Positions 31,686 through 61,488 of a DNA stretch of 64,000 bases are shown here, piece after piece; positions within the stretch are counted from its first letter, which is position 1, and each line of letters opens with the position of its first letter. The position numbers and the translations under genes are program-made. The stretch is from positions 65,589 through 129,588 of the forward strand of contig CAWCOC010000018.1 of assembly GCA_963797035.1 (NCBI GenBank). Direction: 5' to 3'. The notes under the pieces were generated by a model that worked only from the letters and a program-made list of their open reading frames with translations, was not told the DNA's origin and made no database searches. Origin of the DNA: Terriglobia bacterium (lineage in GTDB: Bacteria > Acidobacteriota > Terriglobia > Terriglobales > Acidobacteriaceae).

Positions 31686-33350
31686 TCAGCGTTCGTGCTG
31701 AATGAAGGTGACCTTGTTGATCTCCTGTAACGTGGTGATGCCGGCCCTCACCTTCTCGATGGCCGATTCGCGCAGGAAATGCATTCCTTCCTCGCGGGCG
31801 GCGCGGCGGATTTCCGAGGTGGGCTTGCGCTCCAGGATCATCTCCCGGATGCGGTCGCTCAGCTCCAGCAGTTCGCTGATCGCGGTGCGGCCACGGAAAC
31901 CGGCGCCGGCGCACTCGATGCAGCCCTCGCCTTCGTAGAACGGCACCCCGCCCCACAGCTTCGGGTCCAGCCCGCTGGCCTCCAGCACGTCCGCCGGATA
32001 GTGCAGCGGCTTCTTGCAGCTGTCGCAGATGATCCGCACCAGCCGCTGCGCCAGAATGCAGTTCAGCGCGGAGACGAAGTTGTAGGGCTCCACTCCCATG
32101 TTCAGAAAGCGGCCCAGCACGTCGACCACGTTGTTGGCGTGCACCGTGGTGAACACCAGGTGTCCGGTCAAGGCCGACTGGATGGCGATCTGCGCCGTCT
32201 CGGTGTCGCGGATTTCGCCCACCATGATCTTGTCCGGATCGTGGCGCAAAATCGAGCGCAGCCCGCGGGCAAAGGTCAGCCCCTTTTTCTCGTTCACCGG
32301 AATCTGGGTGATGCCCCGCACCTGGTACTCGACCGGGTCCTCGATGGTGATGATCTTGTCTTCGTCGGTCTTGACCTCGTTGAGCGCGGCATAGAGTGTC
32401 GTCGTCTTGCCCGAGCCGGTCGGCCCGGTCACCAGCACCATGCCGTAGGGCTCGCTGATGTAGCGCCGGAAGCGGCGCAGCGTGATCTCGTCAAAGCCCA
32501 CCACGTCGAGGTTGAGCTGGTGAAACTTCTCGCTCATCGACTCCTTGTCCAGCACCCGGAGCACCGCGTCCTCGCCGTGGATCGAGGGCATGATGGAGAC
32601 GCGGAAGTCGATGAAGCGACCGAGGTAGCGCACCCGGAAACGCCCGTCCTGCGGCACCCGGCGCTCGCTGATGTCGAGCTCGCTCATCACCTTGATGCGC
32701 GACAGGATGGTGGAGTGGTGGTCCTTGCCGATGGGCGCCATGGCCTGCTGCAGCACGCCGTCGATGCGGTACTTGATCTGCACCGAGTCGTCGCGGGTCT
32801 CGATGTGAATGTCCGAGGCGCGGCGCTGCAGGGCAGTGAAGATGGTGGTATCGACCAGCCGGATGATGGGCGAAATGTCGCCCTCGGCCGAGGTCAGCCG
32901 CTCGATCGAAATGTTCTCGTCGCCGCCCTCTTCCTCGCCTTGCACCACGTCCAGGGTGAAGCCCTCGCTGGCCTCTTCCAGCACGCGCTGCGACTGCTCG
33001 GTCTTTTTCAGCAGGTCGCTGATCTGCGACAGCGTGGCCACCCGGGTGCGAATCCGCTTGTGCAGCAGCGAGCCGATCTCGTCGATCATCATCAGCTGCG
33101 AGGGATCGGCCATGGCGATGGCGAGGGACCCGTCGCCCAGCTCTTCCACCGGCACAAAGTTGAAGCGGAACATCAGCTCCACCGGCACCTTGCGCATCAG
33201 ATCGTGCTGGATGTGATGATTGCGCAAATCCAGAAACTCGCAGCGGTAACGTTCTGCGAGGGAGCGCGCCGTGGCTTCTTCGTTGGAAGGAGCAACAAAG
33301 AGCGCGGGTCGAAACGGGGACTCAACAACTCGGACCGTGGAATCTGCCAT
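31686..33350 (-). CDS. GspE/PilB-family type II/IV secretion ATPase (no partner genes in window)
   Basis: The N-terminal T2SSE_N-like domain reads ERYRCEFLDL...VPVELMFRFNFVPVEE...LAIAMADP. Walker A is GPTGSGKTTTLYA. Asp/His boxes, Walker B (KIMVGEIRD) and tetra-Cys (CDSCKK...CIECAG) are present. I did not see an MshEN RLGxx motif. Confidence 0.93.
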   Translation of the reverse strand: MADSTVRVVESPFRPALFVAPSNEEATARSLAERYRCEFLDLRNHHIQHDLMRKVPVELMFRFNFVPVEELGDGSLAIAMADPSQLMMIDEIGSLLHKRIRTRVATLSQISDLLKKTEQSQRVLEEASEGFTLDVVQGEEEGGDENISIERLTSAEGDISPIIRLVDTTIFTALQRRASDIHIETRDDSVQIKYRIDGVLQQAMAPIGKDHHSTILSRIKVMSELDISERRVPQDGRFRVRYLGRFIDFRVSIMPSIHGEDAVLRVLDKESMSEKFHQLNLDVVGFDEITLRRFRRYISEPYGMVLVTGPTGSGKTTTLYAALNEVKTDEDKIITIEDPVEYQVRGITQIPVNEKKGLTFARGLRSILRHDPDKIMVGEIRDTETAQIAIQSALTGHLVFTTVHANNVVDVLGRFLNMGVEPYNFVSALNCILAQRLVRIICDSCKKPLHYPADVLEASGLDPKLWGGVPFYEGEGCIECAGAGFRGRTAISELLELSDRIREMILERKPTSEIRRAAREEGMHFLRESAIEKVRAGITTLQEINKVTFIQHER

Positions 33351-33443
33351 GCGTTCGTCACCCAAATGCGATTCGAAGTCTGATCGTGCGTGTCGCTTGA
33401 TCCGTCGCGCCTGCGGCGCAAGGAGCGGTCAGCAGCGAAAGCT

Positions 33444-34037
33444 CTAGGTACCTCGAACCCCTTCCAGATCGCGATAACGGTACGATTCAACGGGCGTGGT
33501 CCCGGCGACGCGTCCAATCAGGCCGGCGCGCGTGCTGACGCCCATCTTGGTCATGACCGAGTGCAGGAAGGCCTTCACGGTGTTGGGGCTGATGCTCATC
33601 TCGGTTGCGATCTCCTTGCTGGTCAGACCGCGCAAAAGATGTCCCATGGCTTCGCGCTCGCGGGTGGTCAGGTTGTATTTCTTGGAGATGCCGTAGAGGG
33701 TGACTTCGGGCGAGGAAGCCCGCTCCAGGAGAATGGCGGTGGTGCCCTTGCTCATGCCGGTCATGTCGAGGCAATGGCTGGTGCAGACATAGCGCCGACG
33801 ACCAGAGATGAACTCCGCAACTGTCCTGGCCTGGGGCACGCCACGCAGCAGATGCATGGGGACCTTGCCGTTGACCAATTCGTTGAGTTGCCGACCTTTT
33901 CCCGGCTTGCCTGGATAAGCCAGGATTCGCATGGCCTCGATATTGGAGGCAATCAGATCTTTTTGGGGACCGAGAAGCAGCAGCCCAGGCATCGACATTG
34001 CTGGAGCTCGGCCATCGGAATAACGCTGCGGTGCCAT
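33444..34037 (-). CDS. LuxR/GerE-family transcriptional regulator with an uncharacterised N-terminal domain of about 130 aa
   Basis: The C-terminal HTH is LTTREREAMGHLLRGLTSKEIATEMSISPNTVKAFLHSVMTKMGV. ATG 34037 follows GGAAGGA. Confidence 0.85.
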   Translation of the reverse strand: MAPQRYSDGRAPAMSMPGLLLLGPQKDLIASNIEAMRILAYPGKPGKGRQLNELVNGKVPMHLLRGVPQARTVAEFISGRRRYVCTSHCLDMTGMSKGTTAILLERASSPEVTLYGISKKYNLTTREREAMGHLLRGLTSKEIATEMSISPNTVKAFLHSVMTKMGVSTRAGLIGRVAGTTPVESYRYRDLEGVRGT

Positions 34038-34192
34038 AGTTTTATCCTTCCCGTGTTCGGAATCGTGCCTCAGGAGCCCTGACCGATTACGAGGGCCGGA
34101 GCACCGCTCAGCGCCACCCCGTTTGCAACCGAGCGCCTGGTCAGCGCGCTCTCCCTCTACTGCGTTACCTGGCCCGTACTGCAGGTCCGAGA

Positions 34193-60006: not shown

Positions 60007-60055
60007 CCTTGCCGGGGTGCAATCGGTGGTCTCCAAGACACCGGAGGGAGTAACG

Positions 60056-60778
60056 ATGCGCCCTGCTTTACGTTCTTTCGCGGTTGTCGGCTGTCTTCTT
60101 ATGCTCAGCTGTCTTGCCGCGGCAGACCTGGTGAACAATTCTTCAACCGGGCTCTCCGCGCCATCCGGCACCATCACATTCGACTCCCAAGCTGGCTTTT
60201 ATGACGGATATCTGGTCAGCACCGAATACCAGGCGCTGGGCGCAACCTTCTCCGGGTTCGGCTGGGACAACTCGGACCTGGGCCAAACCGGCTCGCTGGG
60301 CTTTTCCGGCGGCGATCTGGTGAATGGCTTTACGGGGTTTCCGGGGCAAATACCCTCCGGCTCCGTGCCCATGACCATTAACTTCGTTCTTGGCCCGGTC
60401 AGCGCTGCTACCTTTGCCGCCGTCGACAGCGGCGGCCAGTACATGGTGGAGGCGTACCTGGGTAGCGCGCTGGTAGAAAGCTTCCTCGCCACCATCGGCG
60501 CCAATCCCGGCGCATACTTCGGGTTCACCAACGAAGCGGGATTCGACTCCATCACAATCACCGCGCTTGGTCAGTCGTCGATTTCGATCGACAATCTGCA
60601 GTACACCCTTGCCCCAATTAACAACGGCGGCAGCGGTGACCCGGGGACTGGTGGTACTGGTGATAATGGCAACCCACCTCCGGTAGAAGTTCCCGAGCCT
60701 GCCAGCCTGGCCTTAATCAGCTCCGGGCTGGTGCTGGTGGCCCTGCGCCGGCGATTCGCGCTGCGGGCGCCGCGTTAG
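60056..60778 (+). CDS. PEP-CTERM sorting-domain protein
   Basis: Signal peptide MRPALRSFAVVGCLLMLSCLAAA. The C-terminus VPEPASLALISSGLVLVALRRRF has the PEP motif, a TM helix and an Arg cluster. Confidence 0.88.
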   Translation: MRPALRSFAVVGCLLMLSCLAAADLVNNSSTGLSAPSGTITFDSQAGFYDGYLVSTEYQALGATFSGFGWDNSDLGQTGSLGFSGGDLVNGFTGFPGQIPSGSVPMTINFVLGPVSAATFAAVDSGGQYMVEAYLGSALVESFLATIGANPGAYFGFTNEAGFDSITITALGQSSISIDNLQYTLAPINNGGSGDPGTGGTGDNGNPPPVEVPEPASLALISSGLVLVALRRRFALRAPR

Positions 60779-60795
60779 CGCACAGGCCAGCCTGA

Positions 60796-61488
60796 CTACT
60801 CACCCGGGGTAGAACAACTGCAGCTACCCCGGCCGCTGCCCAGGTAGCGCACGAACAAACAACTGCTCGACAGAAAATTGGCCTCGTCAGGCCCGAGCGG
60901 TACAACCGGCAGGGGAGCCTCGGTAACGAACGTCGAATTGCCGCTTACTTCCAAGTGAGTGCCGAATCCGGTGGCCAGGGTAGCGTCCGAATACGCGAAG
61001 GGCGAAATCGGAGTGCAACCGGTCGTCGGGGCTTGCAGCAACAGGATCTTGACCACGCCCGCAGCCGGAACTGCGCCGGTCAACGTACTACTGGTTAACT
61101 GGGCACCCACCCGGGCGCTCAGCAATCCGTTGGGAGTGATCCGGCAGGAACAACAAGCCACCATGGCCTGGTCGGCGTCGTAGACGTAGATGTTGGCGCA
61201 GATGTCGCCTTTTCCTGGCACCCCATTCGGACCCCAACCGAGGCTGTCCAGCGGCGTGCCGTTCACGCCAACATTGATGATGCGCAGCAACTGGTCCGCT
61301 GCAGCCCCCGGACCCCGGTTGCCGGAATAACGGGCCACCATGCAAGTTTGCGGCGGAGGCGTTTGCGCCAGCAGCGTCGGACAAGCCATCAACGCCACAA
61401 AGGCAACAACAGCCCATCGCAGCCTTCTCGAGGCTGTTCCCGCATACGGACGGCGGGTTACCGGGGCACTCAAAGCGCACGGCTCCAC
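60796..61488 (-). CDS. Cys-rich secreted protein of unknown family (paralogue B)
   Basis: GTG start, with signal-like RRLRWAVVAFVALMACPTLLAQ. It shares GDICANIYVYDADQAMVACCSCRITPNGLLSARVGAQLTSSTLTGAVPAAGVVKIL and FLSSSCLFVRYLGSGRGSCSCS with 45654..46301. Confidence 0.8.
   Translation of the reverse strand: MEPCALSAPVTRRPYAGTASRRLRWAVVAFVALMACPTLLAQTPPPQTCMVARYSGNRGPGAAADQLLRIINVGVNGTPLDSLGWGPNGVPGKGDICANIYVYDADQAMVACCSCRITPNGLLSARVGAQLTSSTLTGAVPAAGVVKILLLQAPTTGCTPISPFAYSDATLATGFGTHLEVSGNSTFVTEAPLPVVPLGPDEANFLSSSCLFVRYLGSGRGSCSCSTPGE

Follow-up and report, generated by a model that had tools for sequence, protein, structure and literature searches.

A 64,000-nucleotide stretch of DNA from a Terriglobia bacterium (GenBank assembly GCA_963797035.1, contig CAWCOC010000018.1), referred to here as the window, carries a gene island in which two divergently oriented genes encode paralogous proteins of about 3,000 amino acids, designated giant 1 and giant 2. 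An earlier reading made from the nucleotide sequence alone (the sequence-only reading) had placed these paralogues around a 5-kb core and had attributed to them a shared cassette of accessory genes. The divergent pair was confirmed, with the core at 43661–48690. Comparison with other genomes set the edges of the conserved block at 28302 (left) and 63867 (right), and at ~35 kb the block is wider than first proposed. Judged by this conservation, the region is a real, lineage-restricted gene island (Terriglobales, Acidobacteriota). All of its products from giant 1 rightwards carry a signal peptide, a lipobox, or transmembrane (TM) segments, as read directly from the translations. The giants, the core, and the gene that follows giant 2 are:

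34193–43660, minus strand: giant 1, a predicted lipoprotein of 3,155 amino acids with 2 ASH-like domains, 4 PKD domains, ~16 choice-of-anchor-D/ASH domains, and a C-terminal module of six immunoglobulin (Ig)-like domains
44422–45405, minus strand: STN-like protein, secreted or anchored, 327 amino acids, of a family without a database model; ~95-residue N-terminal domain with two invariant Cys, Pro-rich linker
45597–46301, plus strand: secreted Cys-rich protein A, probable start at 45654 (MKKL...), six invariant Cys, no database model
46508–47686, plus strand: periplasmic SurA_N-like and DsbA-like oxidoreductase (Thioredoxin_4 E=2e-33, 116 bits; DSBA E=7e-22, 78 bits; SurA_N_3 E=8e-8)
47721–48500, plus strand: secreted Sel1-repeat protein with 5 repeats (Sel1 E=2e-45)
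48691–57239, plus strand: giant 2, with a signal peptide, 4 PKD domains, ~17 choice-of-anchor-D/ASH domains, and the C-terminal module; 1-nt frameshift near 53776–53790
57284–58282, plus strand: secreted S1 serine protease (Trypsin_2, PF13365, E=2.7e-10, 41.6 bits against a cut-off of 27.6 bits)

The giant proteins and their C-terminal module

Giant 1 is an intact open reading frame (ORF), as seen in the ORF listing and its translation. Its N-terminus, MKWSASTWLLLCVLVFSITFTSC followed by GGGGG, is a lipobox. Read by eye, the window sequence (...VFSITFTSC, then GGGGG) has a counterpart in the orthologue at locus L010 (...CFSFLSC, then GGGGG), in agreement with the suggestion that giant 1 is a lipoprotein; lipidation is predicted. 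NCBIfam model NF012200, which describes a repeated domain of ~108 amino acids and has a cut-off of 45 bits that both giants exceed, matched 18 choice-of-anchor-D stretches in giant 1 with 863 bits (E=4.7e-266), alongside the 4 PKD domains. The C-terminal ~670 residues matched no Pfam or NCBIfam model. Ser, Thr, Ala, Gly, Asn, and Val make up 63% of the protein and charged residues 6%; of its 6 Cys, four that do not belong to the lipobox are spread over the 3,100 residues of the mature protein.

Giant 2 had been taken for a single ORF, which its span of 8,549 nt, not a multiple of 3, does not allow. The frame changes near 53776–53790, giving ORFs at 48691–53895 and ~53772–57239 (frame 0), and the two pieces score 618 bits over 12 stretches and 176 bits over 4 stretches with NF012200. 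According to a three-frame translation, the break falls inside an otherwise regular repeat (...APITVA, then IKAARPP... in one frame and ...QGGTTTIPIQFKP... in the other), where the domain-repeat spacing is 341 nt against an expected 342 nt, indicating a 1-nt deletion. The public gene call for the contig starts a separate protein of 1,105 amino acids (P0121) at this point. Orthologues of giant 2 are intact, with single stop-to-stop ORFs of 2,547 and 2,611 codons in L009 and L008 (~2,500–2,600 amino acids). A same-genus copy of the island with 94–97% identity (L007, ERZ25039551 contig_40482) is split into many short gene calls, a fragmentation that points to frequent indel errors in this long-read assembly series and bears on how the frameshift is judged. 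The break in giant 2 appears to be either an assembly indel or a very recent pseudogene. Also within giant 2, positions 50287–53371 contain three copies of a ~1-kb super-repeat, each copy comprising three Ig domains, with 80–85% nucleotide identity, which suggests expansion by unequal recombination. These copies were seen by repeat search; Tandem Repeats Finder, for which periods above 500 nt are too long, gave no match.

The two giants had been described as having the same architecture. They do share 4 PKD domains, 17–18 choice-of-anchor-D/ASH domains, and a common 670-residue C-terminal module, and their C-terminal 1,100 residues are 52% identical. Giant 1 has ~400 additional N-terminal residues (2 ASH-like domains) and a lipobox where giant 2 has a plain signal peptide, so the proteins are not strictly collinear. 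Both are built only of Ig-like beta-sandwiches, rich in Ser, Thr, Ala, Gly, and Asn and almost free of Cys. Orthologues of giant 2 are 58–67% identical to one another in the module, compared with 56% between the two giants of the window, which places the duplication of the giants before speciation. As had been noted from the sequence, neither giant has a recognizable C-terminal anchor: PF07589 and TIGR02595 gave no match, both proteins finish in a beta-strand that belongs to the last Ig domain, and neither has a C-terminal sorting domain, an autotransporter barrel, or a type I secretion system (T1SS) signal.

By sequence comparison, the six-domain module is the constant element of the giants. 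It is 672 amino acids long and forms a family of its own with 34 hits, some of them on proteins of 720–1,170 amino acids with varied N-termini (Flg_new_2, Big_1/Invasin_D3, He_PIG, or ASH). An AlphaFold2 model built from an alignment of 11 sequences is all-beta with a pLDDT of 91.9, and together with Foldseek it resolves six Ig-like sandwiches in place of the three modules of ~225 amino acids read previously. The PDB structures retrieved by Foldseek were hydin/ASH ciliary Ig arrays, alpha-2-macroglobulin MG domains, and S-layer proteins (E 1e-19 to 1e-11), all with low TM-scores (0.14–0.28), so these matches reflect generic Ig arrays. Searches with Pfam, NCBIfam, and a PDB sequence profile found neither an anchor nor an enzyme in the module. 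On the predicted structure, the module is a chain of roughly six generic Ig-like sandwiches and not an anchor or enzyme.

Conservation of the gene set

The PEP-CTERM gene, further Cys-rich genes, the gene for a tetratricopeptide-repeat (TPR) membrane protein, two PilZ genes, and a sigma/anti-sigma pair of extracytoplasmic function (ECF)-like type travel with the giants in other genomes. Together with the remaining genes of the two arms they are:

28302–29465, minus strand: anti-sigma-like protein with zf-HC2 (E=1.3e-3, weak) and a BNR/Ycf48-like propeller (PSII_BNR E=8e-10); left edge of the block
29350–30681, minus strand: ECF-like sigma factor (Sigma70_r4 E=3.7e-7); maximal ORF, true start probably near 30360
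30403–30903, plus strand: PilZ protein of 166 amino acids (PF07238 E=2e-5, 25 bits), divergent from the sigma gene
31089–31427, minus strand: PilZ protein of 112 amino acids (PF07238 E=6.7e-8, 33 bits) with RRVATR and NVSDTG (RxxxR, NxSxxG)
31686–33365, minus strand: PilB/GspE-family ATPase, orphan and optional (T2SSE E=5e-130), below the NCBIfam equivalog cut-offs for PilB and for GspE
33444–34196, minus strand: LuxR/GerE-type regulator (GerE E=3.7e-15), the ORF abutting the stop codon of giant 1
58566–59675, minus strand: lactonase-type seven-bladed propeller lipoprotein (PF10282 E=1.8e-34) with a lipobox
60056–60778, plus strand: small PEP-CTERM (exosortase-sorted) protein matching PF07589 and TIGR02595
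60796–61488, minus strand: secreted Cys-rich protein B, a paralogue of A with 44% identity
61648–63867, plus strand: polytopic TPR membrane protein with ~9–11 TM segments, a periplasmic domain, and C-terminal TPR; right edge of the block

Pfam and NCBIfam searches returned the assignments that the accessory genes had been given by eye (GspE/PilB-like ATPase, LuxR/GerE, DsbA-like, Sel1, Trypsin_2, propeller lipoprotein, and PEP-CTERM).

Conservation was examined in two directions. The alignment of 11 module sequences was scanned against one genome per GTDB species, which resulted in 24 loci, all in metagenome-assembled genomes (MAGs), from Terriglobia, Terriglobales, Acidobacteriaceae, Bryobacterales, one Armatimonadota, and one weak Myxococcota. 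Their neighbourhoods were read by tblastn of every window protein against the loci (E<=1e-5, a cut-off at which fast-evolving small proteins are missed). The comparison sequences are MAGs or metagenome contigs only, several of them indel-rich and some short. In the other direction, an alignment of the protease, which is better conserved than any other accessory protein, was scanned against JGI metagenome contigs, yielding 20 loci, and those contigs with at least 0.8 kb upstream of the protease gene were assessed. Synteny between the giants and the accessory genes was found both ways, in other Terriglobales MAGs and in contigs from soil or peat, which supports the shared cassette.

Despite rearrangement, nearly all of the gene set is retained in three other species-level MAGs. 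One arm of the cluster on CAVUEZ010000002 (L010 and L009) encodes the anti-sigma protein, the sigma factor, two PilZ proteins, GspE (89% identity), LuxR (76%), and a giant-1-like protein; the other encodes the STN-like protein (42%), DsbA (69%), Sel1 (57%), a giant-2-like protein, the protease (72%), the PEP-CTERM protein (38%), a Cys-rich protein (54%), and the TPR membrane protein (70%). CAVTEQ010000004 (L013 and L008) has the same set minus GspE and the small PilZ protein, with the TPR-Cys pair at the other end. The third, CAVWLY010000037 (L016), lacks a second giant and runs protease, Sel1, DsbA, TPR membrane protein, Cys-rich protein, STN-like protein, one shorter module protein, LuxR, PilZ, sigma, anti-sigma, and Cys-rich protein. 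A further assembly, GCA_037025685 (L032), encodes a giant, the protease (71%), the lactonase (53%), the PEP-CTERM protein (40%), four Cys-rich proteins, Sel1, and the TPR membrane protein (60%). Subsets are kept beside more distant module proteins: module with LuxR (L015), module with protease (L017), and, at 40% module identity, anti-sigma, sigma, PilZ, and module protein (L005). At 32–33% module identity, a SurA_N-DsbA gene lies upstream of the gene for a giant of ~2,970–2,990 amino acids in a Terriglobia MAG and in a Bryobacteraceae MAG, and in the former (L020) an unrelated PEP-CTERM gene lies between the two.

A third module paralogue, of 1,169 amino acids, has a Flg_new_2 N-terminus and its own LuxR gene, 79% identical to that of the window (L004/L011, CAVUEZ010000005.1, ~372.8–396.3 kb). 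This paralogue is encoded inside a polysaccharide locus with Wza-like Poly_export, Wzi, Wzz, glycosyltransferase, and rml genes.

In the window the protease gene begins 45 nt downstream of giant 2. On the JGI contigs, the direct upstream neighbour of the protease gene is module-bearing in L037, L044, L047, L050, L052, L054, and L055; in L038, L039, L040, and L041 it is Sel1, preceded by DsbA. With the genome loci and the window included, there are 17 cases, of which 12 have a module gene directly upstream and 5 a DsbA-Sel1 pair. L050 and L054 preserve the full order of DsbA, Sel1, giant (module 34–36%), and protease (54–59%). Two tight sub-units emerge from these comparisons, DsbA/Sel1/(giant)/protease and giant/LuxR, in addition to a regulatory triad of PilZ, sigma, and anti-sigma. 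Giant 2 lies inside a conserved operon with the order Cys-rich, SurA_N-DsbA, Sel1, (giant), S1 protease. The LuxR orthologue follows the module gene directly in L004/L011, L007, L010, L013, L015, and L016 (57–95% identity).

Clusters without a giant were also found. A 12-kb contig (L040, Ga0187770_10001626) carries a minimal island that lacks a giant, LuxR, and GspE, in the order Cys-rich; anti-sigma and sigma; PilZ; PilZ and STN-like; then Cys-rich, DsbA, Sel1, and protease. L038 and L039 have Cys-DsbA-Sel1-protease and no giant as far as the contigs reach, and the genes behind the protease in L039 are unrelated.

Proteins of the core and the right arm

The protein at 44422–45405 had been called STN-like. 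It gave no Pfam match even at E<=10 and no NCBIfam match, and a profile of four orthologues found nothing in the PDB; membership of the STN domain family (PF07660) was rejected for want of a significant profile match, and the name is kept here as a label. A phmmer search of the full library recovered ~200 proteins that share its ~95-residue N-terminal domain. Among 30 remote relatives scanned, AMIN was detected in 8 and weak STN matches (E=0.005) in 2. Its C-terminus carries a PPGIDPNxxxLYPWNxMQL motif that is conserved in the orthologue alignment.

The Cys-rich family has 184 homologues, all of them unnamed, and those with a source name come from Terriglobales MAGs. The alignment shows a signal peptide and six invariant Cys in proteins of ~175 amino acids. 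AlphaFold2 predicted a beta-sandwich with a C-terminal helix (pLDDT 81), for which Foldseek found no PDB match at E<=1e-3; the best match, the sensory-rhodopsin-transducer-like sandwich TM1070 (E=0.013), was not accepted as the fold. As a marker of the system the Cys-rich protein was rejected, since homologues of 76–86% identity at unrelated sites identify a multicopy family. One such 76%-identical paralogue (L001, ERZ25039551 contig_26166, 10001–10690) lies on the opposite strand in a dcw/mur cluster, between the genes for a Mur ligase and a penicillin-binding protein (PBP/FtsI). Cys-rich protein B always adjoins the TPR membrane gene in the loci compared.

The DsbA-like protein has the features of its family, a CPYC motif and a signal peptide at the N-terminus, and its orthologues lie upstream of giants even at 32–36% module identity (L020, L023, L050, L054). 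The giants contain 4–6 Cys, compared with six invariant Cys in the partner proteins of ~175 amino acids, two invariant Cys in the STN-like protein, and two conserved Cys in the protease. With the giants almost free of Cys, DsbA more likely serves the Cys-rich proteins, the STN-like protein, and the protease. Sel1 lies behind DsbA in every cluster that shows both; in L032, where no DsbA was found, it adjoins the TPR membrane gene. The S1 catalytic triad is present in the protease, with H98, D151, and the Ser of GSSGS invariant in 6 orthologues.

On the right arm, the lactonase-type propeller is kept in L032 at 53% identity and absent from L009, and orthologues of the PEP-CTERM protein were found in L009, L032, and L041. 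The TPR membrane protein matched TPR models only, with no Pfam or PDB sequence match outside the TPR region. Its orthologues are 60–71% identical and are encoded beside Cys-rich genes in L009, L013, L016, and L032. An Asp of the first loop (TEAD-TGW) is invariant among them, and W-x-N-x-H and Glu residues are conserved as well. From its topology and the loop-1 Asp, the architecture hints at GT-C glycosyltransferases with TPR (TMTC/PMT-like), of which it is reminiscent.

Regulatory genes and candidate promoter elements

The triad at the left edge is conserved. Sigma orthologues of 46–70% identity are present in every full cluster, and in L005, L010, L013, L016, L037, L040, and L051 the sigma gene adjoins both a PilZ gene and the anti-sigma gene. 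In the sigma factor, region 4 scored above the cut-off and region 2 was not detected; zf-HC2 in the anti-sigma-like protein reached 19.2 bits, under the cut-off of 22.2 bits. The orthologous pair in L005 gave the same weak signals. The 166-residue PilZ protein has NLSRGG and a degenerate RxxxR, and the 112-residue protein has both motifs. The PilZ proteins carry the PilZ feature of receptors for cyclic di-GMP (c-di-GMP), and ligand binding is predicted from these motifs.

Sigma-54-type sites and other conserved elements precede several of the genes:

31454–31469, minus strand: sigma-54-like site TGGGTGCGGCTTTGCT, just upstream of the gene for the 112-residue PilZ protein
43738–43753, minus strand: putative sigma-54-type promoter (-24 GG / -12 GC) of giant 1, TGGAAGCGGGATTGCA, 78 nt upstream of the ATG
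44013–44030, no strand assigned: inverted repeat TGTGCA-N6-TGCACA, within a conserved block (four-MAG alignment) of the 760-nt giant 1 leader, ~270 nt upstream of the putative promoter
59991–60006, plus strand: exact sigma-54 consensus TGGCACCGGCCTTGCA, 50 nt before the ATG of the PEP-CTERM gene

The PEP-CTERM gene had been described as sigma-54-driven; in addition to its exact consensus, similar sites precede its orthologues in L009 and L032. The leader alignment of four MAGs shows the block CTTTGGA[AG]G[CA]G[GC]GATTGCA upstream of the giant 1 orthologues in L007, L010, and L013, and a related site precedes the third paralogue in L004. Some Cys-rich genes have sigma-54-type sites too. A loose sigma-54 pattern occurs 9 times in the window against 4.7 expected, which alone is not significant, so the weight of these sites comes from their position and conservation and not from their count. 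No Sigma54_activat protein is encoded in the window; one, of FHA-GAF-Sigma54_activat architecture, is encoded near the L005 homologue. Upstream of the sigma-54 element in the giant 1 leader (43661–44421), a conserved TTAGACGGCTCGGCTAA-like block lies at about 44040–44075; this block and the inverted repeat are candidate enhancer or regulator sites.

PEP-CTERM genes have been reported to follow large intergenic regions, to have a sigma-54 site whose distance to the start codon averages 71 nt, and to be linked to exopolysaccharide (EPS) and biofilm production (Haft et al. 2006, PMC1569441). The geometry of the putative giant 1 promoter, 78 nt from the ATG behind a 760-nt leader, matches that of the PEP-CTERM genes in PMC1569441.

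Proposed function and alternative explanations

With about even confidence, we read the island as the source of a regulated fibre of the cell surface or biofilm matrix, controlled together with PEP-CTERM and EPS production. The sigma-54 promoters in front of giant 1 and the PEP-CTERM gene would be fired by an enhancer-binding protein whose gene lies elsewhere, in parallel with the exopolysaccharide-linked PEP-CTERM regulon, and LuxR, the PilZ proteins (through c-di-GMP), and the sigma/anti-sigma pair would tune this response. Both giants would exit the cytoplasm via Sec. Lipidated giant 1 would tether the structure to the envelope, and giant 2 may join it through the C-terminal module common to both. 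DsbA would oxidize the six-Cys partner proteins, the protease, and the STN-like protein but not the giants, with Sel1 as an adaptor. The S1 protease would then trim or release the fibre, and the PEP-CTERM and Cys-rich proteins would be deposited with it in the matrix.

Several observations count against the proposed fibre. We infer each of its functional steps from sequence, and Pfam and NCBIfam scans of ORFs in the window found no gene for an outer-membrane translocator, an exosortase, or an enhancer-binding protein. Giant 2 is frameshifted in this assembly. One cluster has no giant (L040) and others have no giant 2 (L016, L038, L039, L041), so the accessory core is not strictly dependent on the giants, which may be clients or targets instead of the centre of the system. 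Module proteins occur in ~10 other loci (Bryobacterales, Armatimonadota, and some Terriglobales) without any accessory gene within 10 kb, and lone Cys-rich paralogues lie at unrelated sites (L001; L003, among unrelated genes; L033–L035, beside an efflux operon). Finally, the genomes with full clusters are related fairly closely to that of the window (GspE 89%, protease 72%), a kinship through which part of the synteny could be inherited. The sequence-only reading had proposed a self-contained assembly and processing module. Its accessory linkage stands. Self-containment goes beyond what the genes show, as no outer-membrane translocator is encoded.

The main rival, which we regard as possible but tentative, is that the core (anti-sigma/sigma, PilZ, STN-like, DsbA, Sel1, and S1 protease) works as a module for envelope signalling or quality control, with the giants as inserted clients or as targets under its regulation. 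In its detailed form, to be taken with the same reserve, the S1 protease would be a DegS- or Prc-like site-1 protease for the zf-HC2 anti-sigma protein, Sel1 an ExoR-like periplasmic inhibitor, and the STN-like protein a signal relay as in FecA-FecR-FecI. Such a module is consistent with L040, which retains anti-sigma, sigma, both PilZ genes, STN-like, Cys-rich, DsbA, Sel1, and protease with no giant, and with the giant-less cores of L038 and L039. The PilZ-sigma-anti-sigma triad is the most widely kept unit, extending to L005 at 40% module identity, and the Sel1 protein has partial ExoR and AlgK matches that, like the weak STN and AMIN signals in relatives of the STN-like protein, fit these assignments. 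Gene position argues otherwise: the protease gene lies directly behind a module-bearing giant in 12 of 17 cases and not beside the anti-sigma gene, and in distant lineages (L020, L023) DsbA lies directly upstream of giants with no sigma pair within 10 kb. The STN assignment is itself weak, zf-HC2 falls below the Pfam cut-off, and the block encodes no TonB-dependent transducer.

A bolder extension of the proposed fibre, which we consider unlikely, is an undescribed Terriglobales pathway that would place giant Sec-dependent Ig-fibre proteins on the surface without a known outer-membrane translocator or C-terminal sorting signal. The SurA_N-DsbA, Sel1, and S1 proteins and the STN-like Pro-rich protein would provide periplasmic handling and release, the six-Cys and PEP-CTERM proteins would act as structural partners or anchors that the TPR membrane protein may glycosylate, and the ECF-like sigma/anti-sigma-PilZ triad would sense the state of the fibre.

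It is improbable that the gene order was simply inherited among close relatives, with a large adhesin beside unrelated housekeeping periplasmic enzymes. The full clusters do come from MAGs whose conserved proteins are 70–89% identical to those of the window, the TPR membrane family outnumbers that of the module by far (242+ compared with 34 hits), and Cys-rich genes are scattered elsewhere. The set has nevertheless outlived several independent rearrangements, with the TPR-Cys pair moved in L013 and the order reshuffled in L016, L032, and L037. Subsets recur at 32–40% module identity in other families and orders, while the flanks outside the block are not conserved, as seen for the FHA-GAF cyclase gene, which is present only in same-genus L007, and for the unrelated genes downstream of the protease in L039.

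We give very little credence to the giants being periplasmic or S-layer-type structural proteins, either an alpha-2-macroglobulin-like protease trap or a lattice anchored by the giant 1 lipid. Bacterial alpha-2-macroglobulins are large lipoproteins, a protease gene is adjacent, and the Foldseek matches of the module include alpha-2-macroglobulin MG domains as well as S-layer EA1, SbsC, and an archaeal S-layer protein; against this, TM-scores of 0.14–0.28 indicate generic Ig arrays, and a Pfam scan of the giants found no bait region, thioester (A2M/TED) domain, or S-layer-homology domain. The alpha-2-macroglobulin idea in particular was rejected because neither giant has a thioester CxEQ motif. 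Scarcely credible, finally, is a machine of variant type II secretion or type IV pilus-like kind in which the GspE/PilB ATPase powers export or assembly of the giants: the ATPase has intact Walker and tetracysteine motifs, is co-directional with giant 1, and is kept in L007, L010, and L037, but no GspF/PilC platform, pilin, prepilin peptidase, or secretin was found among the window ORFs scanned, an absence that largely refutes such a machine, and the ATPase falls short of both equivalog cut-offs, does not occur in the clusters of L013, L016, and L040 (2 of 4 full clusters lack it), and has a 74–89% identical copy in a conventional pilus or secretion context beside a T2SSF fragment (L003, 15724–17305). 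The ATPase, earlier counted among the components of the system, was therefore dropped from its core and rejected as its motor, being dispensable and without a GspF, pilin, or secretin partner. A c-di-GMP receptor role for it through MshEN was likewise rejected, as the Pfam match covers residues 40–127 and the N-terminal motif was not found in residues 1–40.

Comparison with known systems

Full-text literature searches found no published description of this gene combination, and the statement that no described system combines these components stands. Pfam and NCBIfam lack models for three of the families, namely the C-terminal module of six domains, the secreted six-Cys proteins, and the Pro-rich STN-like protein. 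The remaining components belong to familiar types (a giant surface protein of Ig repeats, DsbA, Sel1, an S1 protease, PilZ, LuxR, and sigma-54/PEP-CTERM), and no new chemistry or mechanism is demonstrated.

The PEP-CTERM/exosortase system with its sigma-54 (PrsK/PrsR/PrsT) regulon (PMC1569441) resembles the island in its secreted proteins rich in Ser, Thr, and Asn, its large intergenic regions, and its -24/-12 sigma-54 site ~70 nt from the start codon. A PEP-CTERM gene is part of the island, and a giant paralogue is encoded inside a polysaccharide-export locus. Unlike the proteins of that system, the giants have no PEP-CTERM tail, giant 1 having an N-terminal lipobox instead, and the window encodes no exosortase, PrsK, or PrsR.

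Cell-surface signalling and ECF cascades (FecA-FecR-FecI; RseA-DegS) likewise combine elements that occur here in one block, namely a putative ECF-like sigma factor, a putative anti-sigma protein of zf-HC2 type whose sensor domain would be periplasmic, a weakly STN-like periplasmic protein, and a serine protease of the periplasm. The island differs from them in having no TonB-dependent transducer, in its sub-threshold STN and zf-HC2 matches, in a protease without PDZ, and in a sigma factor in which region 2 was not detected.

The Lap system of Pseudomonas comprises the giant adhesin LapA, the periplasmic protease LapG, and the c-di-GMP receptor LapD. The island is alike in logic, with giant repetitive surface proteins, an adjacent dedicated periplasmic protease, and proteins at the locus that are predicted to bind c-di-GMP. 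It has neither type I secretion genes nor RTX repeats, its protease is an S1 serine protease whereas LapG is a cysteine protease, and stand-alone PilZ proteins take the place of LapD. Pfam and NCBIfam scans found no family common to the island and the Lap system, so the island is not of Lap type.

Choice-of-anchor-D (NF012200), ASH/hydin-type, and giant Ig-like adhesins (invasin/intimin Big_1, SiiE, Bap) have comparable long arrays of Ig-like sandwiches. The island stands apart from them through its six-domain C-terminal module, for which Pfam and NCBIfam hold no model, and through the absence of a C-terminal sorting signal, autotransporter barrel, or T1SS signal. The ATPase is homologous to GspE/PilB ATPases over its full length (E ~1e-160), with Walker A and B and the tetracysteine motif; unlike those of type II secretion or type IV pilus systems, it is an orphan with no platform, pilins, or secretin and is dispensable in related clusters.

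Acidobacteria rank among the most abundant bacteria of soil, and very little is known of the ways in which they construct their cell surface or bind to particles and polymers. The island offers a concrete, conserved set of ~17 genes in which giant Ig-repeat proteins are tied to putatively sigma-54-controlled PEP-CTERM matrix production, predicted c-di-GMP receptors, and a dedicated periplasmic DsbA/Sel1/protease operon. If the giants do reach the surface, the set would give access to a new mechanism of export or anchoring. The rules of association seen in these comparisons, a protease gene directly behind a module gene or a DsbA-Sel1 pair and, in the clusters closest to that of the window, a LuxR gene behind a module gene, could seed new family models and genome-annotation rules.

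Nearby second-messenger genes

Two further genes with second-messenger domains lie in the window to the left of the block. The gene at 7315–8433 encodes a response regulator with an HD-GYP-type HD_5 domain and is not conserved with the island. The other, at 26489–28138 beside the anti-sigma gene, encodes an FHA-GAF adenylate/guanylate cyclase and is syntenic only in L007.

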